IMG/VR virus record: IMGVR_UViG_3300031994_000001 | Location: 119,799-183,798 of that record | DNA: 64,000 bases | Strand: one strand, 5' to 3' | Source: a virus | Lineage: Duplodnaviria; Heunggongvirae; Uroviricota; Caudoviricetes | Shown: positions 3,328 to 61,136 of the stretch, piece after piece | Layout of the letters: each line of letters starts with the position of its first letter | Numbering within the stretch: position 1 is the first letter of the stretch | Position numbers and translations under genes: made by a program | The notes under the pieces: model-generated | What the model saw: only the letters and a program-made list of their open reading frames with translations | The model's database searches: none | What the model was told of the DNA's origin: nothing

Positions 3328-3350
3328 TGTATTTCATTCTGACAACGAGT

Positions 3351-3400
3351 GCCAAACGACATTTTATAAATATAACAAATATGTCGTTTGGCATTTTTTT
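3351..3400 (+). terminator. rho-independent terminator; loop contains TATAAATA
   Basis: Perfect 12-bp inverted repeat GCCAAACGACAT (3351-3362) / ATGTCGTTTGGC (3381-3392) with an 18-nt loop TTTATAAATATAACAAAT, followed by ATTTTTTT. Confidence 0.6.
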
Positions 3401-3444
3401 GCCTTATGACGCGGTAATAATAACAGTAATCAAAAAGTCGTAAT

Positions 3445-26273: not shown

Positions 26274-26385
26274 TTTTTCGTACTTTTTATTATTTATATG
26301 TATGGCTTATATATAAGCACTTTGGCGGATTTGAAAAAAGTCTGATTTTGACTTTTATAAATATATAAATGTAAAAACGAAAACT

Positions 26386-28806: not shown

Positions 28807-28816
28807 GTTTATAAAT

Positions 28817-29359: not shown

Positions 29360-29438
29360 GTTGATAACTTTGTTGATAACTTTTTTCAGAAAAAATGTTG
29401 AGTGTATAAAAAATTTTGTATTTTTGCAGCGTAATCAA
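29360..29438 (+). promoter_or_regulatory. about 80-nt promoter/operator element, copy 2 (GTTGATAACTTT x2 ... TATTTTTG)
   Basis: Near-identical to 15802-15880; TATTTTTG at 29419-29426; drives the HTH/alpha-CTD gene. Confidence 0.5.
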
Positions 29439-29451
29439 AAACGATACCGAT

Positions 29452-33706: not shown

Positions 33707-33739
33707 TTTTCTTTATTTTTTTGGAATTATCTCTTTTAT

Positions 33740-34865: not shown

Positions 34866-35321
34866 TCATTTCTTATTGGTACTGTATTTGTTGAAACTTC
34901 TTACACTTTTTATTTGGATTATTTTGCCGCTGTCGTTTATTGCGAAAAGATAGTGTCGTTTATTGAATATATCTGAAATATTCGGTTCTTTGAAAAATCG
35001 CAACGCATCATATTTCAGATTTATTGAAAACACCACATCTTCTTGGGATGATTTATCTGCCAATCTTTTCTTTAATTCCTCAAGCGAATGATACAATCCA
35101 ATAAAACTGTTGTTATCATTATCATATTGTGGTAGTGGCTTTTCGCTAACGACATAATCACCGCTCCAAATTTCACTATTTTCCGCATTTGGAGACCCGT
35201 GGTCTTGATATAGATATAATTTCACCATTTCATCAACGGCTTGTTTCAACCTATCCTTTGAAACGGGTTGTATATCAAGTTTCTCGGAAATAAATTCCTT
35301 TGCGTTTAATATTTTTGTCAT
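34866..35321 (-). CDS. leader-family protein 8 (MTKILNAKEFISEKLDIQPVSKDRL...), 151 aa
   Basis: Leader motif. Confidence 0.55.
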   Translation of the reverse strand: MTKILNAKEFISEKLDIQPVSKDRLKQAVDEMVKLYLYQDHGSPNAENSEIWSGDYVVSEKPLPQYDNDNNSFIGLYHSLEELKKRLADKSSQEDVVFSINLKYDALRFFKEPNISDIFNKRHYLFAINDSGKIIQIKSVRSFNKYSTNKK

Positions 35322-39206: not shown

Positions 39207-40778
39207 ATGTCTTTTCACACTTCATCTTTGCAAGAACTTATAAAATTTAGGGTTGAGGTCGGTCGTGAACTCACACATACGGAGGTTGACACCAACTTCA
39301 AAAAAGTGGCTAACCCTTGGAACAGCCTGCGTGATTATTTTTCGCAGGACATTGTTTATTACGGCGGTGAGAACGACTTGACGTTGTATATGTATTGCGA
39401 TACGGGAAGTACACTTGTTCCCGCAGAAAGTAATCTTGCACCACCTAATAATTTATTTAATAGTGGAACGGGAAAAGGTTGGATTCCGTTTAACGGCGGA
39501 GGCGGCGGTGGAGGCGGTGCGCAGGGCGCACAAGGCGTTCAAGGCACACAAGGTGTCCAAGGCATTCAAGGTGTCCAAGGTGTTCAAGGTGTGCAGGGTG
39601 TTCAAGGTGTTCAAGGTACACAAGGTACACAAGGCATACAAGGCACAGAGGGTATTCAAGGTGCTGACGGAAAGCAGGGCGCACAAGGTACACAAGGCAC
39701 AACGGGTCAAAAGGGTGAGGACGGAGAGCCTGGAACCCCAGGCATCCAAGGTGCAACGGGTTCACAAGGTGTCGCGGGTGAAGCGACTGTCTATATAGAA
39801 GATACCGAAGAATATATCCGTATATACCAAGGTGCGCAAGGTGCAAATGGTGCTGACGGCGCACAAGGCGCACAAGGTTTGCAGGGCATACAAGGTACGC
39901 AGGGCGCACAAGGTTTGCAGGGTATGCAAGGTTCGCAAGGTCTGCAAGGTGAAAAGGGCGAGGCTTTTGTTTACCAAGGCGACCAATATATTCAAATCGT
40001 GCAGGGTGTTCAAGGCGTTGAAGGCATACAAGGCATCCAAGGCGTTGAAGGCTTGCAGGGCATAGCAGGCGAGTTCGCCGCACAAGGTGTGCAGGGTGTT
40101 CAAGGTACTGAAGGATTCCAAGGCGAGCAAGGTGTTGAAGGTCTGCAAGGCGAGCAAGGCTTGCAAGGTGAGCAGGGTTATGACGGCGAGCAGGGAATCC
40201 AAGGTCTGCAAGGTGAACAAGGATTGCAGGGTAATACGGGTTACGGCGAAGCGGGGCCGATGGGCGCACAAGGTCTCCAAGGTCTCCAAGGTGTTCAAGG
40301 CGTTCAAGGTCTGCAAGGTGTCCAAGGTATAATCGGTATAGGAAAATCCGTTTATGAGATTTGGGTTGAGACTATGCAGCCTACCGACCCGTCATTCGAG
40401 AATTTCCTTCACACAATACAAGGTGTGCAAGGCGCAAGCGGAAAAAGCGGAGGAAGTGGCGGCGGTGGCGGCTGCGGCTGCGGTTGCGGCTGCGGCGGTG
40501 ACGACTGCGAAGTAAATGAGACTTTGGTGCAACTCGTTCCGCCTGGCGAGACAATGACATTTGACTTTTCCGATTTGATTTACGAGTATTGGAACGACAA
40601 TATCCAAATGTATATGAACTTGGCTACTCCGAGCGGATTGTTCATTATGACCGACACTTCGTTGGAGTTCACCAACCCGTCATCTTCTGACATTGCGGTT
40701 GTGTCTGTCGCTTATTCATACTTCAAGTCGGGCAACTACATATTGCTGTCACCAACGGTGTTCGCACCTATTAAATAA
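39207..40778 (+). CDS. collagen-like (Gly-X-Gln) repeat protein, putative tail fibre
   Basis: GGGGGGGG, then about 90 Gly-X-Y triplets with Y nearly always Gln ([15 protein letters not shown]...), two short interruptions ([30 protein letters not shown]), then [22 protein letters not shown] and a non-repetitive C-domain. Confidence 0.65.
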
Positions 40779-45242: not shown

Positions 45243-45352
45243 TGTAAACCACAATTTATATAAACGGCGATGTATTTGATATGTCGCCGTTGTTTGTTTG
45301 TGCGCACTGGATAAATATATATACTTTATAAATATAAGAAAGAATATTGATT

Positions 45353-47836
45353 ATGAGACAAGACTACTATCATAACGGCCCGTTTGACATAAGTGAGTCG
45401 GGATTTACCGATGGCGGTAAAGAAGTAATTGAAATTGTTGACTACGGTTTGCCCGATGACGGAGAGGGTTATGTGGAAGGTGTGCAGGGCGCACAAGGAA
45501 TCCAAGGTGTGCAGGGTACTAATGGGGGCGGCGGCGGAGGCGGCGGCTCACAAGGCGCACAAGGTATTCAAGGAATCCAAGGAAAGCAGGGTATGCAAGG
45601 TGTTCAAGGTATTAAAGGTTCTGACGGCATACAAGGTACGGCAGGTTCTAACGGCGAACAAGGCGTTCAAGGTGTAGCAGGTGCTGATGGCGAACAAGGT
45701 ATTAAAGGTGCTGACGGCATACAAGGTACGGCAGGTTCTAACGGCGAACAAGGCGTTCAAGGTGTAGCAGGTGCTGATGGAATCCAAGGCGCACAAGGTA
45801 CAGCAGGTTCTGAAGGTATCCAAGGTGCAACGGGTACTGACGGTATCCAAGGTACAGCAGGTGCTGATGGTTTGCAAGGTGCAACGGGTGCTGATGGTTT
45901 GCAAGGTGCTGACGGTATTCAAGGTGCAACGGGTGCTGATGGTTTGCAAGGTGCTGACGGTATTCAAGGTACAGCAGGTGCTGATGGTTTGCAAGGTGCT
46001 GACGGTATTCAAGGTGCGGACGGCGCACAAGGTGTTCAAGGTATAATGGGTGCTGACGGAATCCAAGGTGCTGACGGTATTCAAGGAACTGACGGTTTCC
46101 AAGGTGCGGACGGCGCACAAGGTGTTCAAGGTATAATGGGTGCTGACGGAATCCAAGGTGCTGACGGCGTGCAGGGTGTACAAGGTGTGCAGGGTGCGCA
46201 GGCTGTGTATCAAGACTTTCAACTTGTCACCGCATTGAACTCTGATGTCAGTATGAGTGATTTGTTCGACAATGAATCATACAACAATGCAAGCATAATG
46301 TTTGATATTGACGCTTCAATAGACATAACGGTTGATGTTATGGCAAGCAATGATAACTACTTCATTCTTTCAAACACATCAAACAATCCCATAAATGTCA
46401 CATTCGACTATTCCAATTTAAGCAACATTCGCTTTATTGGAGATGAAGGATATTCGTCAGATGACAGTATCATTATACCTATGCAATCACAGTCTTTTAT
46501 ACAGTTTACATTCAGAAAAATGGGAAGCAATATTATAGTGTACTCTGTGAAACCGATTGCTTCACACGTGACACTTGTTGACGAATCCGATTTGAGCAGA
46601 ACGGCAGTTGCACTTGTTTACAAGAATGCGTCAAGCAACGAACTCAAATACCTTGACATTGACACTATCGGAGGAAACTCGGTTGACATTCAAGGATGGG
46701 TTATGCAGGACTATGTTAGGTTCACGAGAGGAAAGAACGGCATACCCGTTGTTATTCACAAGAATGCTCTCAACAAGTATATGTACGCTGAATACAACAG
46801 ATACAAACTCTACTGCGATACAACGGCAGCGGGCGGATTCCATTGGAAAGTCACAATCAACAATGCAGCCAAGCAGGGCGATGTCACTTGGGCTGTTGGC
46901 GATACATTAGATAGTATTGTCGCGCAAATGACGGGTGTTAATACATATTTGGTATTCTCACACGACAGCGGTGATGATTTTATCAAAGTTAGAAAAGGCG
47001 GAACTTCAAATTCTGTGTTCACACTTACCAATAACACGGGTGCTACCCTCGTTGACTTGTCGCTCTATACAAGAGTGAACGGTGTTCAGCAAGCGGAAAC
47101 CCATAGGGATTGGCAGGCACAAAGTATCGCAACATTGTTCCCGAACTCTAACTTTCCTGCCCCTACAAGCAAGTATTACTGTGAAAACACTTACGATATG
47201 TCACAGCGTACTGGTGCCAATTATCCAAAGTACACTTCATATTGGGAGAACAACAGTTCGGGCAACGCTTGGTATCCCGAAGATTCAACATCAAAGAGAA
47301 TGAACAGAACCAAGTTTGCGTCACTTGACGGTGACGGAAACGCAGAGCATCAAGCGTTATTCGACAAATATAATGGTTCTTGGGACAGATATATGGCTGC
47401 TGCTATGAACAAAAAGGATGACGTAAATACTGACGGTATAGACTATACGTCATACGACAACGGTGATGTATTTACTGCATTTGCCGTGTCTGTTGAGACT
47501 ATGGACTTTGACGGAAGTTACTTGCACGCATATCCCGCAGCATACAATACTTCATTGCGCACAGACTCCGTTTTGGGCGCATACCAAATGCCTACAGTAC
47601 ACGAGGTCGCTGTGTTTATGGACGATGAGACTATGCGCAAGATTAACACGGCATTCGGCTATTTGAGCGATGTAGCCCTTCTTATTGATACAACATCATA
47701 TTGGGCTGCTGGCGAATACAGCGAACAATACGCTTGGTTCTACAACGGTCAGCGTGGCGAAATGGGTTACAACGAAAGATACCAAAACGCCAACGCAGGC
47801 AGGTTTGTGGCATACATAAGACCGCAGAACCCGTAA
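45353..47836 (+). CDS. collagen-like (Gly-X-Gln/Asp) repeat protein with a large C-terminal domain, putative tail fibre / receptor-binding protein
   Basis: N-terminus MRQDYYHNGPFDISESGFTDGG resembles the N-terminus of the 62794-63603 protein. GGGGGGGG, then about 80 Gly-X-Y triplets with internal ~90-nt tandem duplications, then a ~540-aa non-repetitive domain. Confidence 0.65.
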   Translation: MRQDYYHNGPFDISESGFTDGGKEVIEIVDYGLPDDGEGYVEGVQGAQGIQGVQGTNGGGGGGGGSQGAQGIQGIQGKQGMQGVQGIKGSDGIQGTAGSNGEQGVQGVAGADGEQGIKGADGIQGTAGSNGEQGVQGVAGADGIQGAQGTAGSEGIQGATGTDGIQGTAGADGLQGATGADGLQGADGIQGATGADGLQGADGIQGTAGADGLQGADGIQGADGAQGVQGIMGADGIQGADGIQGTDGFQGADGAQGVQGIMGADGIQGADGVQGVQGVQGAQAVYQDFQLVTALNSDVSMSDLFDNESYNNASIMFDIDASIDITVDVMASNDNYFILSNTSNNPINVTFDYSNLSNIRFIGDEGYSSDDSIIIPMQSQSFIQFTFRKMGSNIIVYSVKPIASHVTLVDESDLSRTAVALVYKNASSNELKYLDIDTIGGNSVDIQGWVMQDYVRFTRGKNGIPVVIHKNALNKYMYAEYNRYKLYCDTTAAGGFHWKVTINNAAKQGDVTWAVGDTLDSIVAQMTGVNTYLVFSHDSGDDFIKVRKGGTSNSVFTLTNNTGATLVDLSLYTRVNGVQQAETHRDWQAQSIATLFPNSNFPAPTSKYYCENTYDMSQRTGANYPKYTSYWENNSSGNAWYPEDSTSKRMNRTKFASLDGDGNAEHQALFDKYNGSWDRYMAAAMNKKDDVNTDGIDYTSYDNGDVFTAFAVSVETMDFDGSYLHAYPAAYNTSLRTDSVLGAYQMPTVHEVAVFMDDETMRKINTAFGYLSDVALLIDTTSYWAAGEYSEQYAWFYNGQRGEMGYNERYQNANAGRFVAYIRPQNP

Positions 47837-47948: not shown

Positions 47949-48689
47949 ATGGAACTGTATAACGGCGATTGCATAGATATAATGAAAGACATACCAAGCG
48001 GCAGCGTGGATATGGTGCTGTGCGATTTGCCATACGGAACTACACAGAACAAATGGGATGCCGTCATTCCGTTTGACTTGCTGTGGGAGCAGTACAACCG
48101 TGTGGCAAAGGTATCAGCAGCCATTGTTCTGTTCGCGCAGGGTGTGTTCTATGCAGACCTTGTTCACTCCAACAGAAATAATTTTCGATACGACCTTGTG
48201 TGGGATAAAATGCTTAAAGGCGGGTTCTTGAACGCAAAGGTTATGCCGATGCGCATACACGAGCAGATTGCTGTGTTTTATAGAAAGAAACCCGTTTACA
48301 ACCCGCAGAAGACAAAAGGCAAACCGAACCACACGAAAGGGACGGCTATATTCACGAAAGGCGAGACCAACAACAACTATGGTAAATACAACCCCGTTGA
48401 AACTGACGTGAATGACGATATGAAATATCCGAGTACCATACTGTCGTTCCAAAAACCTCATCCGAGTGTTTCGGTTCATCCCACACAGAAGCCCGTTGAG
48501 TTGCTTGAATATCTCATAAGGACATTCACAAACGAGGGTGACACGGTGTTGGACAATACAATGGGTAGCGGCAGCACGGGTGTAGCCTGCGTGAATACGA
48601 ACCGAAATTTTATAGGCATAGAGAAAGATACTAATTATTTTGAAATAGCGAAAAAGAGAATTGAGGAATCAAATAAAAAATTGTTCTGA
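47949..48689 (+). CDS. DNA methyltransferase 1 (N6-adenine/N4-cytosine, beta-class, PF01555-like)
   Basis: Motif IV variant CDLPYGTT near the N-terminus (D-L-P-Y in place of D-P-P-Y); HPTQKPVELLEYLIRTFTNEGDTVLDNTMGSGSTGVAC (motif I) near the C-terminus. Confidence 0.8.
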   Translation: MELYNGDCIDIMKDIPSGSVDMVLCDLPYGTTQNKWDAVIPFDLLWEQYNRVAKVSAAIVLFAQGVFYADLVHSNRNNFRYDLVWDKMLKGGFLNAKVMPMRIHEQIAVFYRKKPVYNPQKTKGKPNHTKGTAIFTKGETNNNYGKYNPVETDVNDDMKYPSTILSFQKPHPSVSVHPTQKPVELLEYLIRTFTNEGDTVLDNTMGSGSTGVACVNTNRNFIGIEKDTNYFEIAKKRIEESNKKLF

Positions 48690-49433
48690 ATGAACGACAT
48701 CAGACTATATAACGGGGATTGTCTTGAAGTTATGGCGGGTTTGGAAGAGCATAGCGTTGACTGCGTTATATGCGACCTTCCATACGGCATAACGAGTAAC
48801 AAGTGGGATATTGTCATACCCTTTGACAAATTGTGGGAATCGTATGACAGAGTGTGCAAGGAAAACGCTATGATATGTTTGTTCGGCGGGCAACCGTTTT
48901 CGTCAATGCTTGTTATGTCGAACTTGAAGATGTTTCGTCACGAGTGGATTTGGATTAAGAACAGAGGAAGCAACTTTGCGAATACGGTGAGAGAGCCTAT
49001 GAAAGAACACGAAAGCATATTGTGTTTCTCGAAAGGCAAATGGACTTACAACAAGCAGATGCAGGAGCGCACTGGCGGGGGTGCTGACCGTGTTAAGTAC
49101 AGCATATCGTTTGACACTTCATCATCGAACTACCGTGATTTTGACAAAAAGGAAAACCTTGTGCTTACGGAGGAACGTGTGCTGTCATCATACCAAAAGT
49201 TCAACACGGAAGTTGGGTTGCACCCCACACAGAAACCAGTAGCCTTGCTTGAATATCTGATACGGACATACACTAATGAGGGCGACACTGTAATGGACAA
49301 TACGATGGGCAGCGGCTCTACGGGTGTAGCCTGCGCCAACACGGACAGAAATTTTATAGGAATAGAACTTGATAAAAAATATTTTGACATTGCTGAAAGT
49401 AGGATAAAATATGCAAATAAAAAACTTTTCTGA
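48690..49433 (+). CDS. DNA methyltransferase 2 (paralog)
   Basis: CDLPYGITSNKWD ... HPTQKPVALLEYLIRTYTNEGDTVMDNTMGSGSTGVAC; the start abuts the previous stop. Confidence 0.8.
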   Translation: MNDIRLYNGDCLEVMAGLEEHSVDCVICDLPYGITSNKWDIVIPFDKLWESYDRVCKENAMICLFGGQPFSSMLVMSNLKMFRHEWIWIKNRGSNFANTVREPMKEHESILCFSKGKWTYNKQMQERTGGGADRVKYSISFDTSSSNYRDFDKKENLVLTEERVLSSYQKFNTEVGLHPTQKPVALLEYLIRTYTNEGDTVMDNTMGSGSTGVACANTDRNFIGIELDKKYFDIAESRIKYANKKLF

Positions 49434-49434
49434 A

Positions 49435-50385
49435 ATGGACGGGGTGAAACTATACAACGGGGACTGCCTCGAAGTTATGAACGATATACCCGATAACAGC
49501 GTTAATTTAATACTTTGTGACCTTCCATACGGCACAATGGGTATAAAATGGGACGTTACGATACCGTTTGACAAACTGTGGGAACACTACAATCGTGTAC
49601 TGAAACCAAACGGTACGGTTCTGCTTTTCGGAAGCGAGCCGTTTGCTTCTATGGTTCGTTACAGCAATCCGTCTATGTACAAATACGATTGGGTTTGGGA
49701 GAAAAACAACTGCGGCAATTTCCAATTGGTGAACAAGCAGCCTATGAAGATACACGAGACAATATCCGTGTTTTATGAGATTCCGAGACATTACGCCTTT
49801 TCGGAAATAATCGTTTCCAATATGAAGCGTCTTGGCTTGGGTTACAACGAGGTCAGTATGCTGTTCCCGTCACGAAACGGTTTACAGACGGGTTGGCTGT
49901 CCAACAAGATAAGCGGAAAGCAGTTGCCTACAAGAGAGCAATGGAAGCGTTTGTGTAATTTGTTCGGTATTGAAGATGAATATGACAAACTCGCAGTCAA
50001 GAACACTATAACCTATAATATGGTTCTGAAAGACGTTGAGAGAACATTGTCAAACAAAGGCAAAGGCGGCAGGCTCGGACATCTCGGCTCGCAGAACAAG
50101 CGCAGCGAGTATAAGCAGACAAAGAGCGGTTATCCAAAAAGCATATTGAAGTTCAACCGAGAGACGGGATTTCACCCTACGCAGAAGCCCGTTTCGCTGC
50201 TTGAATTTTTGGTTAAAACCCACAGCAACGAGGGTGACGTTGTTCTTGACAACTGTATGGGCAGCGGTTCTACGGGTGTAGCCTGCGTGAATACGGGCAG
50301 GAACTTTGTCGGCATTGAAATTGAGAAAAAGTATTTCGAGATTGCCGAAGAACGCATTTTGGATTCCGAAAAGAAACTGTTTTAG
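49435..50385 (+). CDS. DNA methyltransferase 3 (paralog with an ~80-aa insertion)
   Basis: CDLPYGTMGIKWD ... HPTQKPVSLLEFLVKTHSNEGDVVLDNCMGSGSTGVAC; ATG 1 nt after the previous stop. Confidence 0.8.
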   Translation: MDGVKLYNGDCLEVMNDIPDNSVNLILCDLPYGTMGIKWDVTIPFDKLWEHYNRVLKPNGTVLLFGSEPFASMVRYSNPSMYKYDWVWEKNNCGNFQLVNKQPMKIHETISVFYEIPRHYAFSEIIVSNMKRLGLGYNEVSMLFPSRNGLQTGWLSNKISGKQLPTREQWKRLCNLFGIEDEYDKLAVKNTITYNMVLKDVERTLSNKGKGGRLGHLGSQNKRSEYKQTKSGYPKSILKFNRETGFHPTQKPVSLLEFLVKTHSNEGDVVLDNCMGSGSTGVACVNTGRNFVGIEIEKKYFEIAEERILDSEKKLF

Positions 50386-50413
50386 TTGTGTTAAAAAACA
50401 AAAAATTATTCTG

Positions 50414-51349
50414 ATGGTAAGAAACATTATAATTGATGGCGAATTGCCAATAATATGTTCCGTCCCCGCCATTGAGGGTGTCGCTTATATGCTCAAGGAG
50501 CATTTTAACGACAAACCGAACAGACAGTTCACGGTGAACACAAGCATAGAGGATTACGATGAGTTGGAGAAAAACAGCGAACTCACGGACTGTATGGTCT
50601 ATTACAATATGGAGCATAAGTGCAAGATTATGTGGAACGGGCAGTTGCCGTTCTGCGGTTCGTATTGGACGGAGAAAAACAACGAAATGTTCGCCAAGTA
50701 TGATGAGATATGGGATTTCCAAATTGAGAACTACGAGTATTTCAAGTACCACGGTCTCGGAGACAAATTCAGATTCAGACCGCTACGGTACACAAGTTTC
50801 TATGAATGGTACAGAACAAGCGAGAAACCGCAGTTCGACATTCAGTTGGAGTGTGTTATTGATTCCGATATTAGGGCGGTTGCATTGCGTAATCTGACCG
50901 ATATTCCTATGGCTGTTGACGATAACGGAAATTATGTGATTACGGGTGAGCGTATGCGAATCAACCTAACAAACACAATGGAAAGCGGCGTGAAACTGTT
51001 GGCAAAGAACAACTGCCGCTATGGTATTGACATTCCGAGATATGACGTGCTTTGCACGATAAACACGTTCCGAATCTATGAGTATGTCTGTATGAACAAG
51101 CCCGTTATTGTATGGGATAAATACGGCATCACATCAAAGCGTTATTTCAACGACTTGTGCATTTACACAAAAGACATTACCGCGTACAACATAAACAACA
51201 TAATTCAGAACGAGCCGAAGTCCGATGTTGCCGACACATTCAAGCAGATGACATTCAATGATTCCGACTATAACGAATACATACTTGACATAGTGCGCGA
51301 CCATAAAGATAGGACGGGTGAGACTATTCCCGATTCAGTATTGCAATGA
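50414..51349 (+). CDS. hypothetical protein (311 aa) embedded in the methyltransferase array
   Basis: ORF from the ATG 28 nt after the MTase-3 stop; its stop overlaps the MTase-4 ATG (ATGA). No confident motif. Confidence 0.5.
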   Translation: MVRNIIIDGELPIICSVPAIEGVAYMLKEHFNDKPNRQFTVNTSIEDYDELEKNSELTDCMVYYNMEHKCKIMWNGQLPFCGSYWTEKNNEMFAKYDEIWDFQIENYEYFKYHGLGDKFRFRPLRYTSFYEWYRTSEKPQFDIQLECVIDSDIRAVALRNLTDIPMAVDDNGNYVITGERMRINLTNTMESGVKLLAKNNCRYGIDIPRYDVLCTINTFRIYEYVCMNKPVIVWDKYGITSKRYFNDLCIYTKDITAYNINNIIQNEPKSDVADTFKQMTFNDSDYNEYILDIVRDHKDRTGETIPDSVLQ

Positions 51350-52161
51350 TAGACGATACAAACATAGAACTTTTGCACGGTGATTGCCTTGAACTTATGA
51401 AAGGCATACCCGACAACAGCATAGACCTCGTGCTGTGCGATTTGCCATACGGCACGACCGCCTGCGCTTGGGATGCCGTCATACCATTCGAGCCGCTTTG
51501 GGAACAGTACAAAAGGGTTACAAAAGACAATTCACCGATTGTGCTGTTCAGCACACAGCCGTTTACAACAATGCTCATCTACTCAAACATAAAATGGTTC
51601 AGAGAGGAAATCATTTGGCTTAAAAACCGTGGCGGCAGCGGTCTCCATTCCGACAGACGGCATATCAAGACTCACGAGAATATCGTTGTTTTTTCCAAAG
51701 GTTCGTACACGTTCAACCCGCAGAAGTGGGCAGTGTGTGACAAAAAGTTCCTCGTACACAGAAAGGTGTTTGACTACGGCTATGCGAAAAACAACATATA
51801 CGGAAATATTCGCGATGTGAAGAAACCCGATGACGGAACTCGGAATCCGATAAGCGTTGTGTCATACGAAGTGCCTCATACCCCGTCAAAAGGCAGGCAT
51901 TATGACAGCAATGTTGACTTGCGATACCATCCGACACAGAAACCGATAGAACTGCTCGAATACCTTATAAAGACATATAGCAATGAGGGAGGCGTTGTTC
52001 TTGACAACACTATGGGTTGCGGCAGCACGGGTGCAGCCTGCGTGAACACAAACCGCAAATTCATAGGCATTGAGATTGAGAAAGAGTATTTTGACATTGC
52101 GGAGAAACGCATAAAAGAAGCCAAGCAAAAACAGCAAACTGAAGCAAAGACATTGTTCTGA
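51346..52161 (+). CDS. DNA methyltransferase 4 (paralog)
   Basis: CDLPYGTTACAWD ... HPTQKPIELLEYLIKTYSNEGGVVLDNTMGCGSTGAAC. Confidence 0.8.
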   Translation: MIDDTNIELLHGDCLELMKGIPDNSIDLVLCDLPYGTTACAWDAVIPFEPLWEQYKRVTKDNSPIVLFSTQPFTTMLIYSNIKWFREEIIWLKNRGGSGLHSDRRHIKTHENIVVFSKGSYTFNPQKWAVCDKKFLVHRKVFDYGYAKNNIYGNIRDVKKPDDGTRNPISVVSYEVPHTPSKGRHYDSNVDLRYHPTQKPIELLEYLIKTYSNEGGVVLDNTMGCGSTGAACVNTNRKFIGIEIEKEYFDIAEKRIKEAKQKQQTEAKTLF

Positions 52162-52949
52162 TGGAAGTGAACAAGATATACAACCAAGACTGCATTGATG
52201 GTATGCGGTTTATTGGCGACAAGTCAATAGACTGCATAATTTGTGATTTGCCATACGGAACGACTGCCTGCAAATGGGATTCCGTCATTCCGATAGAATC
52301 GCTATGGGAACAGTATGAGAGGATTATAACCGATGTCGGTGCTATTGTGCTGTTCGGTCAAGAGCCGTTTTCCTCCTTTTTGAGAATGAGCAACACTAAA
52401 CTCTACCGTTACGATTGGATATGGGAAAAGCAGAGACCATCCAACTTCCAACTTATGAATTACCAATGCGGCAGGATTCACGAAACGATAAGTGTTTTCA
52501 GCAAAAGCAACGCCTGCTATTCAAACGGCAAGCCTACTATGACATACTATCCGCAGACGACTTCAAGGGAAAAGGCGAGGGTTAGTACAAAGAACACAGT
52601 TTACAGCAACAACATTCTGCACAACTACAATAAGACTGCAACTGACTGTGACGAGAAAAAGACCTATAACGTGAAGCAGCCGACTTCCATCATCAAGTAC
52701 AATACGGTTGAGGGTGGCAAGATACACCCGACACAGAAGCCCGTTGAACTTGTGCAGTACCTTGTGCGGACTTACACGAAAGAGGGCGACCTTGTGTTGG
52801 ACAACTGTATGGGCAGCGGCACGACCGCAGTAGCCTGCATTCGGGAAAACCGCAGGTATATAGGGTTCGAAACGGATTCGGAATACTATGAAAAGTCGTT
52901 GGAACGTATAAAAGGCGAGATTGAGGAAAAGAGAAAACAACTTTTTTGA
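52161..52949 (+). CDS. DNA methyltransferase 5 (paralog)
   Basis: CDLPYGTTACKWD ... HPTQKPVELVQYLVRTYTKEGDLVLDNCMGSGTTAVAC; its ATG overlaps the previous stop (TGATG). Confidence 0.8.
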   Translation: MEVNKIYNQDCIDGMRFIGDKSIDCIICDLPYGTTACKWDSVIPIESLWEQYERIITDVGAIVLFGQEPFSSFLRMSNTKLYRYDWIWEKQRPSNFQLMNYQCGRIHETISVFSKSNACYSNGKPTMTYYPQTTSREKARVSTKNTVYSNNILHNYNKTATDCDEKKTYNVKQPTSIIKYNTVEGGKIHPTQKPVELVQYLVRTYTKEGDLVLDNCMGSGTTAVACIRENRRYIGFETDSEYYEKSLERIKGEIEEKRKQLF

Positions 52950-52985
52950 TACTGGAGTATAAATATACATATATAAAAGTTATAT

Positions 52986-53243
52986 ATGAAGATACTTGAC
53001 ACAAAACAATTAGACGAAAAACTCAAAATAGAACCCGTTTCAAAGACAAAACTCAATGGGTTGAAAACAAAAATTGAGGAAGACAAGGATTTGATGGGTT
53101 TGCTTGAAAAAACAATATCCAAAATCGGTGACTATGTTGATATTGACGGTGAAAGATGGGATGAAGAATGCGTCAAAGGATTGAAAAAAGGTTTTGATAT
53201 GCTTTTGGACTTTTATGTCAAAGTGAAACGAGACGAAGAATAA
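52986..53243 (+). CDS. leader-family protein 10 (MKILDTKQLDEKLKIEPVSKTKL...), 85 aa
   Basis: Leader motif; preceded by GTATAAATATACATATATAAAAG. Confidence 0.5.
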   Translation: MKILDTKQLDEKLKIEPVSKTKLNGLKTKIEEDKDLMGLLEKTISKIGDYVDIDGERWDEECVKGLKKGFDMLLDFYVKVKRDEE

Positions 53244-53253
53244 TACAACGTAT

Positions 53254-53661
53254 ATGGCAAAAATCAGAAAAATTGACGAACTTGATGCAGTTTCTGAAAA
53301 GATTAGCATACAACCCGTTACGAGAGGTGAGTTGGCTAATTTGACTTACGGCAAGGGCAGATACATAATCACCGACATTTGGGTCTTGGAAAAGGATAAA
53401 GACGATGACGGTTCGTATCTTGAGTTTAAAATGTCAATCGGTGATGATTTGAAGAAATTGGTTGCCGAAACCTTGCTGAAATTTTGCGATGTCGTTGTTG
53501 ACACAAGCAAACTCTCTTATGTCGAATATCCCGACAATGAGGTTTGGGCGAATTATACCGACAAGGATGTCGCAGTTTATCAATGCAAGGTTGATATTTT
53601 ACGGAATATGACAACAAGGGATTACGAAAGACTTGGAATCCAAGACGATTTGACAAGATGA
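53254..53661 (+). CDS. leader-family protein 11 (MAKIRKIDELDAVSEKISIQPVTRGEL...), 135 aa
   Basis: Diverged leader motif. Confidence 0.5.
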   Translation: MAKIRKIDELDAVSEKISIQPVTRGELANLTYGKGRYIITDIWVLEKDKDDDGSYLEFKMSIGDDLKKLVAETLLKFCDVVVDTSKLSYVEYPDNEVWANYTDKDVAVYQCKVDILRNMTTRDYERLGIQDDLTR

Positions 53662-56553: not shown

Positions 56554-56826
56554 TTATGCAAGTTTTTTAATTTTCATTGAAAAGTCTTTCCACCAAGTGT
56601 GGAACGGAATCGCATCCCCGATACCTTTCACGGTTTCGTTGTACTTTTTCTCAACGTCTTTTTCTATGTCGTTGATAGTGTCTGAAACCTTTTTGTATTT
56701 CTTCGGGTCTTTCTCCATAAGTTCGGCTGCTTTGTCGAACACGAATGCGTTTAACTTCGTCATTCTGTAATTGAGTTTGACAGCACTAATAAAACCCTCT
56801 CCGATAAAATCGCTGTATGTTTTCAT
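56554..56826 (-). CDS. small protein starting MKTYSDFIGE (T4 capsid-targeting-sequence-like N-terminus)
   Basis: N-terminal decapeptide matches 7 of 10 positions of MKTYQEFIAE, which is the T4 internal protein III capsid-targeting sequence as I recall it. Confidence 0.5.
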   Translation of the reverse strand: MKTYSDFIGEGFISAVKLNYRMTKLNAFVFDKAAELMEKDPKKYKKVSDTINDIEKDVEKKYNETVKGIGDAIPFHTWWKDFSMKIKKLA

Positions 56827-56831
56827 AGTCT

Positions 56832-57185
56832 TTATTTGTTATAAAAGTACACTGCCTCGTACCAATCGCCGCCGTCATCGGAACTTGTTTGCGTGACGTG
56901 GTGCAGTTTGTAGCCCAATTCGGTTATGAGTTTTTTAGAGAATCCGTGTTCGTGCTTCCAATTACCCTCTATCTGTACGCAGACATACCGTGGGTCTTGC
57001 GGCGTTTCTATCCAAACTTCCGCGCTGACACCATTGTTCTCAAGGGTCTTTTGAATCCTATCAACGTCTTTGTCGCTAATCATTCTGCGTTCAATTTCGT
57101 TTTGGATATTGTCCAACCGTTCTTTCGACACGGGTTGGATGTCAAGTTTTTCCTTGATGAATTTGTCTGCTTTGAGAATTTCCAT
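56832..57185 (-). CDS. leader-family protein 12 (MEILKADKFIKEKLDIQPVSKERL...), 117 aa
   Basis: Leader motif. Confidence 0.55.
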   Translation of the reverse strand: MEILKADKFIKEKLDIQPVSKERLDNIQNEIERRMISDKDVDRIQKTLENNGVSAEVWIETPQDPRYVCVQIEGNWKHEHGFSKKLITELGYKLHHVTQTSSDDGGDWYEAVYFYNK

Positions 57186-57200: not shown

Positions 57201-58067
57201 TTATGTTGTGAAGAAATAGGCAACCGAATGTCTTGCGTTGTTTATTTCCTCTTTGATTTCTTGTATTTCGCTGTCGCCCCATTGGGTGTACATATCGTAG
57301 TTTATCGTCACATTACCTGGGAGGTTGTATTGGAACATTCCCAAAATCCTGCTCATATTCTTCATACACATAGCCACGCAGTATCTGAAGAACAAGTCGT
57401 CTTCGAACAACGCGCAGTCGGATATGGTTGAAAGAACGTGGAACACGCAGGGTCTTGTCGGGAGTTCGCCCGTGAACCTCAACTTCTTTGTAAGTCTGTT
57501 GTAACTGAATCCGTGCATTTCCTGCAACATCTGACGGGCTTGGTCGAAGAAACTCCAATTGCAAGTCCAATACACGAGGTTGTCAGCAGCCTGCGGGAGA
57601 CGGTCGTTGTACATACTCGAAGCAAACATTCTCTGAACGCCGAAGTCAAGGTTTCCGCCGTCAAGACGTGTCGAACTGCCCCAACCCGCTTCACCGCTGA
57701 ATCTGCCGACTTGATAGACGCGCAGCACGGAGAATATGTTGTCGGGCATAACAAGCACACCACGGTCTTTTTTCGTTTCGGATTTCAATATCTTGTTTCC
57801 CTGCACGCCGCTTCTGTTGGTAAGACCGAGACGGAAACTGTCGGTCATAAAGACCTCATAGGGGCAGGATATGTAAATTTCCTCAACTGAATCATCGTAT
57901 GCGTTGTAGAAATACCTTTTAGCCTCGCCCACAATCTGCGCTATCGCAGCCTTCGGGAGCGAGAAAGGTATCTGACAGTTCAGCGTCATTTGCTTGTTTA
58001 TTCTGTCAGTGAAAGCGGCAAGACATTCTTGGCTTTCAGTATCTTCGCAATCTACATAGTAACCCAC
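57201..58067 (-). CDS. hypothetical protein (288 aa); GTG start
   Basis: The track ORF begins at GTG (complement 58065-58067); no ATG near the 5' end. Confidence 0.4.
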   Translation of the reverse strand: MGYYVDCEDTESQECLAAFTDRINKQMTLNCQIPFSLPKAAIAQIVGEAKRYFYNAYDDSVEEIYISCPYEVFMTDSFRLGLTNRSGVQGNKILKSETKKDRGVLVMPDNIFSVLRVYQVGRFSGEAGWGSSTRLDGGNLDFGVQRMFASSMYNDRLPQAADNLVYWTCNWSFFDQARQMLQEMHGFSYNRLTKKLRFTGELPTRPCVFHVLSTISDCALFEDDLFFRYCVAMCMKNMSRILGMFQYNLPGNVTINYDMYTQWGDSEIQEIKEEINNARHSVAYFFTT

Positions 58068-58092
58068 TGTTATACCAATATTCTTCTATTAT

Positions 58093-58521
58093 TTATAATT
58101 CGATAATCAAACGGGTGTTCTTGTTACGCAAAACCCTTGCGTTTTCAGTAAGTTTGTAAACATCACACAGAACATCCAACGTTGTCAGATTAAGGAAATT
58201 GTCGCCTTTTTCAAAAGGAATGGCGGATTGCAGATAGACCTGCTTTTCTATCGGTATGCCAAGTTTTTGAAACCTGCTTCTTGTGTACGCGATGTTTTTC
58301 AGAGTGTTGTTCACCCTGCGTAACTCGCTTTCGGTCATTTTGACCTTTATTGTCTGTGTGTACACAGTGCCTTGTTTATCCCATACTTTGTTGTAGTTGA
58401 CAGACAAAATATTCAGTCTCGGCTCGTTGATTTCGTTTTTCAGTTTGCCAAGTCTGTCCTTTGTTACGGGCTTTATGTCCAATTTTTCGGAGACAAACTC
58501 CTCTATGTTCAATACTTTCAT
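58093..58521 (-). CDS. leader-family protein 13 (MKVLNIEEFVSEKLDIKPVTKDRL...), 142 aa
   Basis: Leader motif. Confidence 0.55.
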   Translation of the reverse strand: MKVLNIEEFVSEKLDIKPVTKDRLGKLKNEINEPRLNILSVNYNKVWDKQGTVYTQTIKVKMTESELRRVNNTLKNIAYTRSRFQKLGIPIEKQVYLQSAIPFEKGDNFLNLTTLDVLCDVYKLTENARVLRNKNTRLIIEL

Positions 58522-58525
58522 AGCC

Positions 58526-58960
58526 TTATTCTATATATTTTACTGTGTCAAAATGGCAGGTGTCTTTCGCCACTTCGCATCTTTGTTGCAATTCAATGGA
58601 ATCCTTTTTGTCATAGCAGTAAATGTAAAGTTTCTTGCCGACAATCTTGTTTCCGAATTTTTTCATATTTTTGTCTATGGCTTTGTAATCGTTTTTCTCG
58701 TGCATAATGCTGTCATAGTCATATATCGCTTTCCAAAAATCGTTGCTGTATGTTGTGTCCTCAAATTCTTTCACATTTTTCATATTCGTGAAAGTGAACT
58801 CGTATTTTGGACACATCATAAAATCGGTGTCATCGTCTTTGAAAGTCGGAAGTGAAGCAAGGATTCTGCCTTGACTGTCCAACACGCTTTCAAACGGTGT
58901 TTTTGTCGCAACAGTCTTTGCGCTTTCTGCTATGAATTGTTCAAATTTGTATATTTCCAT
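58526..58960 (-). CDS. leader-variant protein (MEIYKFEQFIAESAK...), 144 aa
   Basis: N-terminus resembles both the family leader (MKILKFEQYINEKL) and the T4 capsid-targeting sequence (MKTYQEFIAE) but lacks the NIKPVSKDRL part. Confidence 0.5.
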   Translation of the reverse strand: MEIYKFEQFIAESAKTVATKTPFESVLDSQGRILASLPTFKDDDTDFMMCPKYEFTFTNMKNVKEFEDTTYSNDFWKAIYDYDSIMHEKNDYKAIDKNMKKFGNKIVGKKLYIYCYDKKDSIELQQRCEVAKDTCHFDTVKYIE

Positions 58961-58967
58961 AATTTTG

Positions 58968-59609
58968 TTATTTTTTAATTTTTCCTTCAATCCAATTCTG
59001 TTTATTTATCGGTAGAACAAGGTTTGGATTATTACCGCAATATAAATTATCGCCGATTTTCTGCGGTGCGCCTTCAATGGTTGTAAGTTTGTTATTACGG
59101 CAATAAAAACCACCTCCGACTTCTTGCGGTGCGCCTTTAAGGGTTGTCAAATAGTTGTATCTGCAAATAAAATCATCACCGACTTCCTTTGGTGCGCCTT
59201 CAAGGGTTGTCAGTTTATTATTACTGCAATTAAAATCACCACCTACTTTCTGCGGTGCGCCTTTAAGGGTTTTCAGTTTATTACCACTGCAATCAAAATC
59301 CCCGCCGACTTTCTGCGGTGCGCCTTCAAGGGTTATCAGTTTGTTATTAAAGCAGCCAAAATACCCTTTAACGTGTCCGAATCTTATTTTAAGTTTACCG
59401 TCAAGCACTATGTCGTTTGAAATCCTAACGTCCCCGTCACAATCATAACTTCTTGTTGATGGATTCCATACGAGATTGTTGACTTCTATGAATAATTTCG
59501 TTTTATCATCAACTTCGGGTTCTTTACACAATTCAGCAAGTCTATCTTTTGAAACGGGCTTAATGTTAAGTTTCTCGTTTATATATTGTTCGAACTTGAG
59601 TATTTTCAT
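58968..59609 (-). CDS. leader-family protein 15 with about 7 LRR-type repeats
   Basis: MKILKFEQYINEKLNIKPVSKDRL..., then GAPQKVGGDFDCSGNKLKTLKGAPQKVGGDFNCSNNKLTTLEGAPKEVGDDFICRYNYLTTLKGAPQEVGGGFYC. Confidence 0.6.
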   Translation of the reverse strand: MKILKFEQYINEKLNIKPVSKDRLAELCKEPEVDDKTKLFIEVNNLVWNPSTRSYDCDGDVRISNDIVLDGKLKIRFGHVKGYFGCFNNKLITLEGAPQKVGGDFDCSGNKLKTLKGAPQKVGGDFNCSNNKLTTLEGAPKEVGDDFICRYNYLTTLKGAPQEVGGGFYCRNNKLTTIEGAPQKIGDNLYCGNNPNLVLPINKQNWIEGKIKK

Positions 59610-59616: not shown

Positions 59617-60321
59617 TTATTGTTTATCACAAGTAAGAATGCCTTGTATCCAATTTGGTTTTTCTTTTGGCATTGTTAAATTTGGATTGTTTTTGCATAC
59701 AAAATGAAAAACGCCTTTTATTACACAATCTATCGAATGCAACATATTATCACTGCAATCAAAATTGCCTCCTACATATTTCGGTGCGCCTTCAAGCGTT
59801 GCAAGATTGTTATGGCTGCAATTAAAATTCCCGCCCACTTCTTTCGGTGCGCCCTTTAGCGTTTTTAATTTGTTTTGGCTGCAATCAAACACATACGGTA
59901 TTTCTTTGGGCGCACCTTCAAGGGTTTTCAACATATTCTTACTACAAATAAAAGAGTCATCAATTTCTTGTGGGGCAAAGCAAAGGGATGTCAGTTCGTT
60001 GTCCGAACAATCAAAGAAACCCATTACTTTTAACGGTGCGCCTTCAAGGGATTTCAGATTGTTATTGGAACAGTTGAAGTTTCCATTTATAACTCCGAAT
60101 TTTATCGGGAATGAATCCAACCCTATGTCGTTTATATAAACATTTCCGTGGCAATCATAGCGCATTGTTTGCTTATTGAACACAAGTTCGTGACGTTTGA
60201 TGAAATTTTTTCTGTATTCATTTAAGTATAGTTCACCGAAACGATTATCAAGTCTGTCTTTTCTGACGGGCTTAATGTTAAGTTTCTCGTTTATGTATTG
60301 TTCTGTTTTAAGTATTTCCAT
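59617..60321 (-). CDS. leader-family protein 16 with LRR-type repeats
   Basis: MEILKTEQYINEKLNIKPVRKDRL..., then repeats. Confidence 0.6.
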   Translation of the reverse strand: MEILKTEQYINEKLNIKPVRKDRLDNRFGELYLNEYRKNFIKRHELVFNKQTMRYDCHGNVYINDIGLDSFPIKFGVINGNFNCSNNNLKSLEGAPLKVMGFFDCSDNELTSLCFAPQEIDDSFICSKNMLKTLEGAPKEIPYVFDCSQNKLKTLKGAPKEVGGNFNCSHNNLATLEGAPKYVGGNFDCSDNMLHSIDCVIKGVFHFVCKNNPNLTMPKEKPNWIQGILTCDKQ

Positions 60322-60323: not shown

Positions 60324-61136
60324 TTAAAATATTATATATTTGTCTTTTACCCAATTTGGTTTTTCTCTTGGAGGATTCAGTTTCGGGTTGTTATTGCAAT
60401 AAAAATCACCAACTCTTTGTGGTGCGCCGTAAAATGATTCAAGTTCATTGTTTGAACAATCAAGTTTGTATTTTACAACTTTTGGCGAACCCACCAATGA
60501 TTTCAGTTTGTTGTGCGATATGTCTATTTTGTCGCAATTCGGAATCCCGACAAATGACTCTATGTTATTGTCTTTGCAATTTATAAAACTGGTGCTGATA
60601 CCCGTTCCGATTTTTTGCGGTGCGCCTTCAAATGTTTTTAGTTTGTTGTGTTCACAATGCAAATCCCCACCGATTTCTTTCGGCGCGCCTTTAAGGGTTT
60701 CAAGTTCATTGTTATTACACCAAAGACCCCATTTGATTTCCTGCGGTGCGCCTTTTAGTGTTTTTAGTTTGTTGTAACCACAATAAAAAGAATCTCCTAC
60801 TTTTTGTGGTGCGCCCTCAAGTGATGTAAGTTCGTTATATCTGCAATCAAAATAGCCACCGACTTCCTGCGGTGCGCCTTTTAGTGATGTCAGTTTGTTG
60901 CCCGCACAGATAAAATTACCATTGACCACACCAAATCTAACGGGAAATTCAGTAAGCCCCTTTTCTATCAAATTAACATTTCCTTTACAATCATACAACA
61001 TAGTTTCTTTGTTATAAACAAGGTTATACTCTTTTATGAATGTTTTCATTTTTGTGGTTTGAATTAACCTGCTTTTTGAAACGGGCTTAATGTTAAGTTT
61101 CTCGTTTATATATTGTTTCGAGTTCAGTATTTCCAT
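60324..61136 (-). CDS. leader-family protein 17 with about 9 LRR-type repeats
   Basis: MEILNSKQYINEKLNIKPVSKSRL..., then repeats. Confidence 0.6.
   Translation of the reverse strand: MEILNSKQYINEKLNIKPVSKSRLIQTTKMKTFIKEYNLVYNKETMLYDCKGNVNLIEKGLTEFPVRFGVVNGNFICAGNKLTSLKGAPQEVGGYFDCRYNELTSLEGAPQKVGDSFYCGYNKLKTLKGAPQEIKWGLWCNNNELETLKGAPKEIGGDLHCEHNKLKTFEGAPQKIGTGISTSFINCKDNNIESFVGIPNCDKIDISHNKLKSLVGSPKVVKYKLDCSNNELESFYGAPQRVGDFYCNNNPKLNPPREKPNWVKDKYIIF

Follow-up and report, generated by a model that had tools for sequence, protein, structure and literature searches.

Open reading frame (ORF) 56554-56826 lies on the minus strand of a 64,000-nucleotide stretch of the IMG/VR virus record IMGVR_UViG_3300031994_000001. 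The whole analyzed stretch is referred to as the window and corresponds, in reversed orientation, to positions 64,833-128,832 of the 248,464-bp JGI metagenome contig Ga0247608_10000043 (3300028805). The ORF encodes 90 amino acids (aa), starts MKTYSDFIGEGF, and opens with the leader MKTYSDFIGE/GFISAV, where the slash, here and below, follows the glutamate that ends a leader or a candidate cleavage motif. This leader resembles the capsid-targeting sequence (CTS) of phage T4, MKTYQEFIAE (PMC8442874). A second gene of this kind, 58526-58960 (minus strand, 144 aa), lies in the frame 58526-58990, in which the in-frame ATG at 58960 gives MEIYKFEQFIAESAK with the short leader MEIYKFEQFIAE/SAK; the JGI gene call uses the same ATG. 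Both genes, with these starts, were found where a sequence-only reading of the window had placed them. About 18 window genes have related N-termini in total: 13 carry a 24-residue leader, as judged by a profile of the shared N-terminus, one more has an internal copy of it, and four have the CTS-like first half only.

Short leaders and the T4 capsid-targeting sequence

The T4 CTS as quoted in the sequence-only reading agrees with the published form and with a translation of the T4 record. In that record, ipII and ipIII start with MKTYQEFIAE/A, ipI with MKTFKEFTST.. (MKTFKEFTSTTTPVSTITE/A), alt with MELITELFDE/D, and gp24 with MAKINELLRE/S. The CTS is borne by IPI, IPII, IPIII, Alt, and gp24 (Mullaney & Black 1996, as cited in PMC9026906 and PMC5694885). 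The protease gp21 cleaves after L/I-X-E, the first 10 residues of IPIII are enough for packaging, and mutagenesis of the IPIII CTS assigned residues 4 and 7 to targeting and residues 8 and 10 to processing (PMC9026906). The leader of ORF 56554-56826 is identical to the CTS of ipII and ipIII at the reported 7 of 10 positions (1, 2, 3, 4, 7, 8, and 10). All four residues mapped by mutagenesis (Y4, F7, I8, and E10) are identical to T4; at position 10 of IPIII, a change from Glu to Asp is reported to block cleavage.

By BLOSUM62 score against the CTS, MKTYSDFIGE reached 39 and the runner-up 19 among the 709 ATG-anchored six-frame ORF starts in the window. BLASTP aligned residues 1-24 of ORF 56554-56826 with residues 1-24 of T4 IPII, ungapped, with 11 of 24 residues identical and a pairwise E value of 5e-5. 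The top match of the ORF in 38,880 PHROG families was phrog_7857, annotated as internal virion protein (E = 0.004, 18.7 bits, residues 1-67); this is the T4 IPII family, in which T4 IPII itself scored 181.7 bits. Membership of the ORF in that family was rejected because the BLASTP likeness is limited to residues 1-24 and the PHROG match to 18.7 bits. With the likeness confined to the first 24 residues, the ORF shares the leader region of IPII and is not a full-length homolog. Its body is basic (pI 9.4) and predicted to be all-helical at low confidence, the AF2 model is poor (pLDDT 59), and its only homologs are near-identical ones with an invariant N-terminus.

The leader of ORF 58526-58960, with its FIAE-ending core, matches the CTS as claimed when the two are anchored at the terminal Glu (F6 on Y4, E7 on Q5, Q8 on E6, F9 on F7, I10 on I8, A11 on A9, and E12 on E10), and on this alignment it is a CTS lengthened by two N-terminal residues. 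Its first 12 residues also match the helix of a long leader, MKILKFEQYINE, at 8 of 12 positions, and it scored 18.0 bits against the 12-residue helix profile, the best match without the core that follows the helix in the long leaders. The third member, 35327-37534 (minus strand, 735 aa, phrog_23677), has the leader MNYIKTYDKFVNE/SANSEN in front of a body with PGA_cap (CapA-like, 178 bits) and MATCAP carboxypeptidase (45 bits) domains. Its product may be a virion-delivered enzyme acting on poly-glutamate or cell-envelope peptides, and its combination of a short leader with an enzyme body recalls T4 Alt. Counted from Met to Glu, the leader has 10 residues in ORF 56554-56826, 12 in ORF 58526-58960, and 13 in ORF 35327-37534. 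A degenerate short leader without the terminal Glu, MKIYKINEYLSVNAQ (13.0 bits), was observed in 32852-33706 (minus strand, 284 aa), which encodes a DUF285 protein (BspA-like leucine-rich repeat [LRR], 250 bits) and has TATAAATA, the T4 late-promoter consensus, 30 nt upstream. Another candidate, 1296-1685 (minus strand; MKLCTHKEFISE), was dropped because its Met lies within a longer ORF, the start of which is at 1871 and is preceded by a late promoter.

When residues 2-n were shuffled and Met1 was kept, the observed CTS score was attained in 0/20000 shuffles of MKTYSDFIGE, 81/20000 of MEIYKFEQFIAE, and 21/20000 of MNYIKTYDKFVNE. Together with the rank among the ORF starts, these results largely exclude the N-terminal amphipathic-helix composition bias that had been named as a possible source of the similarity. 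At gene starts, the pattern M-x(4-11)-[FYLW]-[ILV]-x-E had 10 matches in 57 kb of T4. Seven of them, gp68, gp21, gp22, gp24, Inh, IPII, and IPIII, are prohead core proteins or gp21 substrates according to the notes of the T4 record and two reviews (one of them PMC9026906); the other three are alt.-3, tk.1, and denV. The same pattern was present at 14 of 70 gene starts in the window versus 2.5% of internal-Met controls (p = 5e-7), at 10 of 59 in the huge phage LR756500, and at 74 of 293 in sister contigs. The enrichment at true gene starts over internal-Met controls was 8- to 12-fold in these three related genome sets. When T4 was searched with a 12-residue profile built from 65 leaders, the genuine gene starts with the highest scores were those of IPII, IPIII, and Inh, at 5.8-6.7 bits.

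That the CTS likeness arose by chance from N-terminal amphipathic-helix composition is most improbable. The sequences are short and their absolute scores low (6.7 bits; PHROG E = 0.004), as such an origin would have it. Nevertheless, the shuffle, rank, pairwise, and enrichment tests largely refute it: no shuffle equaled MKTYSDFIGE, the rank was 39 versus 19 among 709 starts, the pairwise match to IPII spans 24 residues, and the motif is enriched at true gene starts in all three genome sets.

Two-part leaders in the window

The long leaders follow the pattern M-K-I-L-x3-E-Y-I-N-E and then K-L-N-I-K-P-V-S-K-D-R-L. Near ORF 56554-56826, on the minus strand, they are carried by 56832-57185 (MEILKADKFIKE/KLDIQPVSKERL, 117 aa, 60.0 bits), located between a gp13-like neck gene and ORF 56554-56826, and by 58093-58521 (MKVLNIEEFVSE/KLDIKPVTKDRL, 142 aa), directly upstream of the gp13-like gene. 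The LRR gene 58968-59609 (MKILKFEQYINE/KLNIKPVSKDRL, 213 aa, 62.6 bits) and its paralogs 59617-60321 (MEILKTEQYINE/KLNIKPVRKDRL, 234 aa) and 60324-61136 (MEILNSKQYINE/KLNIKPVSKSRL, 270 aa) lie on the same strand. Further along the minus strand, long leaders were found in 21816-22613 (MKILNSSEYINE/KLNIQPISKEKL, 265 aa, 57.5 bits; TATAAATA 21 nt upstream), 24162-24446 (MKIATSSEYINE/KLNIQPITKDRL, 94 aa, 46.5 bits), the LRR paralog 24448-25245 (MKILKADEYIGE/KLEIEPVSKERL, 265 aa), 33740-34792 (MTKILNFNEFNSVSE/KLNIQPVSKGRL, 350 aa, with an insertion of 2-3 residues), and 34866-35321 (MTKILNAKEFISE/KLDIQPVSKDRL, 151 aa), the body of which matches the second module of the multi-module protein P0015. 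On the plus strand they open 28835-29278 (MNILDYDNFVSE/KLDIKPVSKSTL, 147 aa; TATAAATA 17 nt upstream), 52986-53243 (MKILDTKQLDE/KLKIEPVSKTKL, 85 aa; TATAAATA 20 nt upstream), and, in a divergent form, 53254-53661 (MAKIRKIDELDAVSE/KISIQPVTRGEL, 135 aa, 47.2 bits). The LRR-like gene 25260-26273 (minus strand, 337 aa; TATAAATA 17 nt upstream) has the internal core copy near residue 59 (..KRVDE/KLNIKPISKETL.., 24.9 bits, model positions 10-26).

Past residue 30, the bodies showed no similarity to one another except for four LRR paralogs, as compared by BLASTP among the 15 leader-bearing proteins then identified. The bodies that could be assigned are DUF285, a second LRR type, and the PGA_cap and MATCAP enzyme, the rest being orphans without a recognizable family. 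Basic bodies (pI >= 8) were found in 10 of 18 leader proteins versus 5 of 25 other window proteins. The leader was absent from window genes with an assigned replication, methylase, nucleotide-metabolism, neck, or tail-fiber function. In the AF2 model of the LRR protein 58968-59609, the body was predicted with pLDDT > 90 (pTM 0.82), and residues 1-20 had a pLDDT of 47-54 and were unpacked, as expected for a flexible tag on a confidently modeled body. A fold search with this LRR model gave generic LRR matches only, none of them significant (best E = 0.03, TM <= 0.55 to the LRR domains of IpaH/SspH1).

The leader family beyond the window

Searching 1.84 billion representative proteins with the leader profile gave 186 matches at E <= 0.001, mostly at residue 1 among the matches listed. 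A degenerate DNA pattern of the core was found only in four IMG/VR contigs and a few metagenome contigs, with many copies in each; about 100 leader copies were counted in 224 kb, often in tandem gene arrays. By tblastn, neither the 24-residue leader nor a multi-module leader protein had a match in phages, and the long leader is thus absent from deposited phage genomes. The logo of 89 nonredundant leaders reads M-[KRE]-I-L-[DKN]-[ST]-[EDN]-[EKQ]-[YF]-[IV]-[NS]-E-K-L-[ND]-I-[KQ]-P-[VI]-[TS]-K-x-R-L, and 65 of them share a Met-to-Glu span of exactly 12 residues. A Sec, Tat, or lipoprotein signal was rejected; read directly from the logo, the leader is charged and amphipathic, with no hydrophobic run, Cys, or RR, and so it has neither the hydrophobic core nor the lipobox of such signals.

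With the terminal Glu taken as P1, the leaders end in FIGE, FIAE, FVNE, or [YF]-[IV]-[NS]-E, and P3 is I/V/L in 82 of 89 N-terminal leaders; Val, common at P3 here, is outside the published T4 rule L/I-x-E. The aromatic residue equivalent to Y4 is not conserved across the long-leader family, and ORF 58526-58960 and the long leaders match CTS residues 4, 7, 8, and 10 only if anchored at the Glu. The CTS reading is better supported in the ORFs with a short leader than in those with the two-part form.

The leader arrays lie in variable regions. In the leader-bearing sister contig IMGVR_UViG_3300028797_000147 (L036), about eight leader genes follow the portal gene, a position at which unrelated genes were found in a relative whose portal is 79% identical, and in contig L006 all six adjacent genes are leader-bearing. 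Contig L036 also contains, at positions 1950-3690, a CRISPR-like array with at least 27 copies of the 36-nt repeat GTTGTAAATAGCATACAAACATAGCCATTCAACAAT and unique spacers of about 30 nt (period 66 nt), adjoined by an 814-aa ORF (3809-6253, minus strand).

Selection on the peptide and internal copies

Among ten window leaders, different codons were used in 306 of 632 identical-residue pairs (48%), which points to selection on the peptide and not on the DNA. The DNA upstream of the leaders is unrelated between copies, and the leader DNA itself is nearly identical in three LRR paralogs. A DNA-level repeat or recombination element was rejected: given the codon differences and the unrelated upstream DNA, no nucleotide conservation beyond the need of the peptide was seen, the codons of K13 and P18 excepted. 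Lys13 is AAA in 10 of 10 leaders (42% genome-wide) and Pro18 is CCC in 9 of 10 (25% genome-wide), for example at 59609-59538 on the minus strand, in statistics that ignore the shared ancestry of the copies.

Conservation within the long leader is highest in its second half (KLNIKPVSKDRL), which is found inside multi-domain proteins as well. At the domain boundaries of multi-module proteins, 31 internal copies were found in which the upstream helix is lost. P3 was V/I/L/M in 28 of these 31 copies (90%), versus 3-19% at P2 and P4-P6; P1 is always Glu because the core pattern used in the search begins with that Glu. The retention of P3 fits the gp21 rule L/I-x-E. From their sequence, the internal copies would fit repeated protease sites that free domains with the N-terminus K-L-N-I-K-P, and would equally fit a structural or docking motif starting at P3. 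The multi-module proteins (P0011-P0016, P0023, P0031, P0039; L006:2131-3963; L015:2487-4766) contain 2-4 repeats of an approximately 150-aa domain, 'LKTGDIVV...IW.R', each headed by [VIL]-x-E-K-L-x-I-x-P-V-S-K-x-R-L. Stop-codon recoding that would fuse ORFs into such proteins was rejected, P0011 being a continuous 610-aa ORF in the standard code.

The leader might also be an evolutionary leftover, the conserved 5' end of a gene family that duplicates and recombines rapidly and uses it as a homology patch for cassette exchange, with no targeting role. Leader genes in tandem arrays in variable regions, the fused multi-module ORFs, the nearly identical DNA in three LRR paralogs, and the uniform codons at K13 (AAA 10/10) and P18 (CCC 9/10) would all agree with such an origin. 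We consider it improbable, however, as 48% of identical residues differ in codon, the bodies are dissimilar apart from the four LRR paralogs, the Met-to-Glu spacing is fixed in 65 of 89 leaders, and P3 and P1 are retained at internal copies while the flanking residues drift.

Kinship with T4 and late promoters

By its gene content, the source is a T4-related jumbo phage, uncultivated so far. No phage in INPHARED matched 22 kb of the window by megablast. The window contains the T4 gp13-like neck gene (57201-58067, minus strand; PF26809 Phage_T4_gp13), which is without a leader and lies within the same minus-strand string of late genes as the leader genes, and a gp32-like ORF (26790-27731); UvsW and gp44-type clamp loader genes are found in the flank. 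Relatives of the large virion proteins and of gp13 were found only in Lak-type Prevotella megaphages, LR7565xx huge phages, Tenacibaculum phages PTm1, PTm5, and pT24, Chryseobacterium phages MA9V-1 and MA9V-2, Flavobacterium phage MaF61, and phage PAU.

The motif TATAAATA occurs at 22 sites in the window versus 2.5 expected, a number attained in 0 of 100 shuffles. At 13 sites it lies 17-32 nt upstream of a gene start, among them those of gp13, one tail-fiber gene, and five leader genes. The site of the gp13-like gene is at 58090-58097 (minus strand), about 22 nt upstream of its GTG start, and those of the leader genes are at 22635-22642, 26291-26298, and 33737-33744 on the minus strand and 28810-28817 and 52958-52965 on the plus strand; a further site is at 45327-45334 (plus strand). 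The 22 sites indicate that T4-type late transcription is apparently used, and not only the Bacteroidetes-type promoters noted before. A CTS-like system had been called unexpected in this phage, which was wrong in view of gp13, gp32, UvsW, the gp44 clamp loader, and the 22 late-promoter sites; in a T4-related phage with T4-type late promoters, such a system is less surprising than had been thought.

Leader-like N-termini and head genes in relatives

A Peptidase_S77 gene, the family of gp21-type prohead proteases, was detected in PTm1 (43.6 bits), LR756500 (42.6 bits), and PAU (39.9 bits), and in MA9V-1 with 25.9 bits, just below the Pfam cut-off; it also adjoins the major capsid protein (MCP) gene P0159, a close MCP relative. 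A tblastn search of phages with T4 gp21 gave matches dominated by T4-like records. In MA9V-1, an 82-aa ORF between the portal and protease genes starts MKTFTCFINE/A, and the MCP of this phage reads ..RWSEFINE/AAPKGG. In PAU (NC_019521, 100-114 kb; L046 and L200), at least 13 genes around the head module start MKT[LI]xxL[YF]E, some of them continuing AKLNE, and the MCP reads ..GAKLNE/S. The tagged PAU genes include the scaffold gene and gp142 and gp154, annotated as internal capsid protein, a database label of unstated basis; no paper describing the PAU leader family was found in the literature search. In LR756500, eight genes near gp13 start MKYIxxYxxF[LIV]xE/[SA], and the MCP starts MIKLINE/AEIMRTWAPIIE/GSTGI.

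In the Gp23-type MCP family of huge phages (3,228 matches; P0156-P0275, L049-L168), the N-terminus is M-x(1-4)-L-[IL]-N-E-[AS]-E-[IV]..T-W-[AS]-P-[IV]-I-E-x-[AS]-T-G-I. Written as M-x-x-L-I-N-E-A-E-[IV]..T-W-A-P-I-I-E-E-A-T-G-I, it is almost invariant, and some members read FINEK, the string that ends window leaders. The capsid protein is probably cleaved during maturation at the two T4-type [LI]-x-E sites in this N-terminus. In MA9V-1, PAU, and LR756500, the relatives in which leaders and MCP could both be read, the leader ending is the motif at the start of the phage's own capsid protein, as would be expected of a single protease and scaffold system acting on both. The search for similar N-termini that the sequence-only reading had suggested found matching motifs in T4 prohead proteins and in these three relatives.

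Alternative roles for the tag

An external role of the leader, as an assembly or anchoring tag that docks changeable adhesin-like proteins on the capsid surface, neck, or fibers, is an alternative that we regard as rather unlikely; the CTS likeness would then reflect a shared helix-plus-Glu design and not the destination. The interchangeable tailspikes of other phages, attached through conserved N-terminal adaptor regions, would be an analogue. LRR, DUF285/BspA, and Fib_succ_major bodies are typical surface-binding modules, the leader genes lie beside gp13 and tail-fiber genes under late promoters, and the KLNIKPVSKDRL core is kept in every copy and resembles a docking strand. The relative PTm1 reportedly has head-fiber-like appendages. 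External anchoring is at odds, however, with the specific match of the motif to T4 internal-protein and prohead-core substrates and with the occurrence of these N-termini on head-module genes of relatives, namely scaffold and 'internal capsid' genes. In addition, the tail fibers and gp13 of the window are without a leader, and small basic orphans such as ORF 56554-56826 are unlike adhesins.

The tag might instead act inside the infected cell, in localization, oligomerization, chaperone recognition, or regulated degradation. It is unstructured or helical and detached from the fold, and it is present on a very large share of genes, both of which would suit an intracellular role. We consider this improbable as well, because leader genes and structural genes stand in common late transcription units, the likeness of the tag is specifically to gp21 substrates, analogous tags are found on head-module genes of PAU and MA9V-1, and the logo has no hydrophobic core or lipobox.

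Other genes in the window

Two large tail-fiber genes with collagen-like repeats and many PHROG tail-fiber matches (39207-40778 and 45347-47836, plus strand) lie between two leader-gene clusters. A TnpB/IS605 OrfB-type gene (22694-23971, minus strand), with HTH_OrfB_IS605, OrfB_IS605, and Cas12f1-like TNB domains, is located between leader genes. At 47949-52949 (plus strand), at least four consecutive N6_N4_Mtase DNA methyltransferase genes were found, for which the contig gene calls give five. The region comprising 18786-19901 and 14315-15364 (plus strand) contains a divergent adenylosuccinate-synthetase-like gene (Pfam 64 bits) and a nearby GMP-reductase/IMPDH-family gene; the former is a candidate PurZ-type enzyme for 2-aminoadenine DNA that is worth checking. 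A fusion of HTH_17 with an RNA polymerase alpha C-terminal domain and a flotillin/SPFH (Band_7) protein, both unusual for a phage, are encoded at 29416-30261 and 31241-32776 (plus strand).

Proposed function of the leaders

The motif exists, moves between unrelated proteins, is selected as a peptide, stands in late units, and has parallels in the substrates of T4 and in capsid proteins of related phages. From these sequence relationships, we estimate a probability of roughly 55% that the leaders are prohead-targeting propeptides cut by a gp21-type protease, and it is probable that the phage loads a variety of proteins into its capsid and delivers them into the host. In the proposed mechanism, the N-terminal amphipathic helix ending in [FY]-[ILV]-x-E would direct late-made proteins into the prohead core, where a gp21-type (Peptidase_S77) prohead protease would cut after the Glu; the mature proteins would remain in the head and enter the host with the DNA. 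The cargo would comprise LRR and DUF285 binding modules, the PGA_cap/carboxypeptidase enzyme, and small orphans, many of them basic. In a narrow clade, the tag would have grown into the two-part 24-residue leader, with K-L-N-I-K-P-V-S-K-D-R-L as the new N-terminus after cleavage. In multi-domain proteins, [VILM]-x-E has been kept, and the same protease might cut there to free one domain after another, which is the most speculative step.

Several points weigh against this proposal. Absolute scores are low for both the profile (6.7 bits) and the PHROG match (E = 0.004), and the tag is on roughly a fifth to a quarter of genes, far above T4. The most conserved part of the long leader follows the proposed cut site, for which T4 offers no precedent; in the long leaders the Glu is followed by Lys, whereas T4 and the short class have Ala, Ser, or Gly there; and some genes start at the core, without the helix or the P3 residue (MLTIKPITK.., MNEKLNIQP..). 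BspA-like DUF285, LRR, and Fib_succ_major bodies are typical of surface adhesins, for which an external site on the virion fits at least as well. In the window, in 10 kb on either side of it, and in roughly 450 kb of sister-contig loci, phmmer queries with head proteins of T4, MA9V-1, and LR756500 did not detect the phage's own protease, MCP, or scaffold; both flanks contain replication and lysis genes only. Because its own gene was not recovered, we infer the prohead protease of this phage from the relatives only. No proteomic or biochemical report of cleavage or packaging for the clade was found in the literature searched.

The earlier claim that the wider leader family is a CTS-like system therefore stands in part. 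The unrelated bodies, the [ILV]-x-E ending, the selection on the peptide, the profile matches to IPII, IPIII, and Inh, and the Peptidase_S77 genes and motifs of relatives speak for it; the second half and the internal copies are unaccounted for, and the protease and MCP of the phage itself were not recovered. The long leader is more than a CTS, and the CTS model alone does not explain its second half. A more far-reaching version is possible but doubtful: the narrow clade may use its two-part 24-residue leader to bring dozens of fast-diversifying enzymes and binding proteins of the LRR/BspA type, encoded by as much as a quarter of its genes, into the head for coinjection, the internal [VIL]-x-E/K-L-x-I-x-P motifs may be cleavage sites that split precursors into cargo units, and the new N-terminus K-L-N-I-K-P-V-S-K may anchor to the shell or the DNA or guide ejection.

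Comparison with known systems and implications

Like the T4 CTS, the leaders start at residue 1, have 10-13 residues forming an amphipathic helix with an [ILV]-x-E end, and are followed by a small residue (G/S here; A, S, or D in T4). In both systems the tag is on unrelated, fast-changing proteins, including an enzyme, in a setting of T4-like core genes and late promoters. The T4 internal-protein loci are variable, and the leader arrays resemble them. In contrast to T4, most copies here are 24-residue, two-part leaders in which a conserved segment with Lys at P1' follows the proposed cut; they are on about 20-25% of genes, where T4 has a handful, and further copies stand inside multi-domain proteins. 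PAU belongs to the same wider clade, having the large virion protein and the Gp23-family MCP in common with it, and likewise has a multi-gene L-x-E leader family around Peptidase_S77 and the motif in its MCP. Its leaders differ in sequence and are without the KLNIKPVSK core, although K-L-N directly follows the first Glu in both; the PAU copies cluster in the head module, whereas those here are scattered in arrays across the genome.

The inner-body and ejection-protein propeptides of phiKZ, 201phi2-1, and SPN3US are cut by gp175/gp245-type proteases after S/A/G-x-E (PMC9026906, PMC5694885). These, too, are jumbo phages with many head-loaded proteins, the N-terminal propeptides of which are cut after Glu by a distant gp21 homolog, and SPN3US gp53 and gp54 are a paralog family with conserved N-termini. 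Their propeptides are mostly > 100 residues long, however, P3 is small and not aliphatic, and the lineage is unrelated. Encapsulins, shells of the HK97 fold, take up unrelated cargo by means of short, conserved, transferable loading peptides. By analogy, the extended KLNIKPVSKDRL segment with its Pro may be likened in style to these peptides, which are usually C-terminal and uncleaved and have no sequence similarity to the leader.

On this reading, a targeting propeptide of the T4 type would have been enlarged to two parts in the narrow clade, placed on a fifth to a quarter of the genes, and reused inside multi-domain proteins. Experiments on the CTS have so far been done mainly in T4, with longer propeptide counterparts in phiKZ-like phages. 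If the proposal is true, the proteins that uncultivated gut and rumen jumbo phages probably package in the capsid and inject into the host could be listed from metagenomes by a simple N-terminal rule; the same rule was correct for 7 of 10 matches in T4. As anti-restriction and host-takeover factors of T4 (IPI*, Alt) are injected, the leader-tagged LRR, DUF285, and enzyme genes would then be the first candidates for antidefense and host manipulation. The leaders would also supply new, possibly orthogonal, packaging tags for phage engineering, and the conserved segment after the cut and the internal copies would point to processing rules not known from T4. The CTS principle would be conserved and greatly expanded in Bacteroidota-associated relatives of T4.

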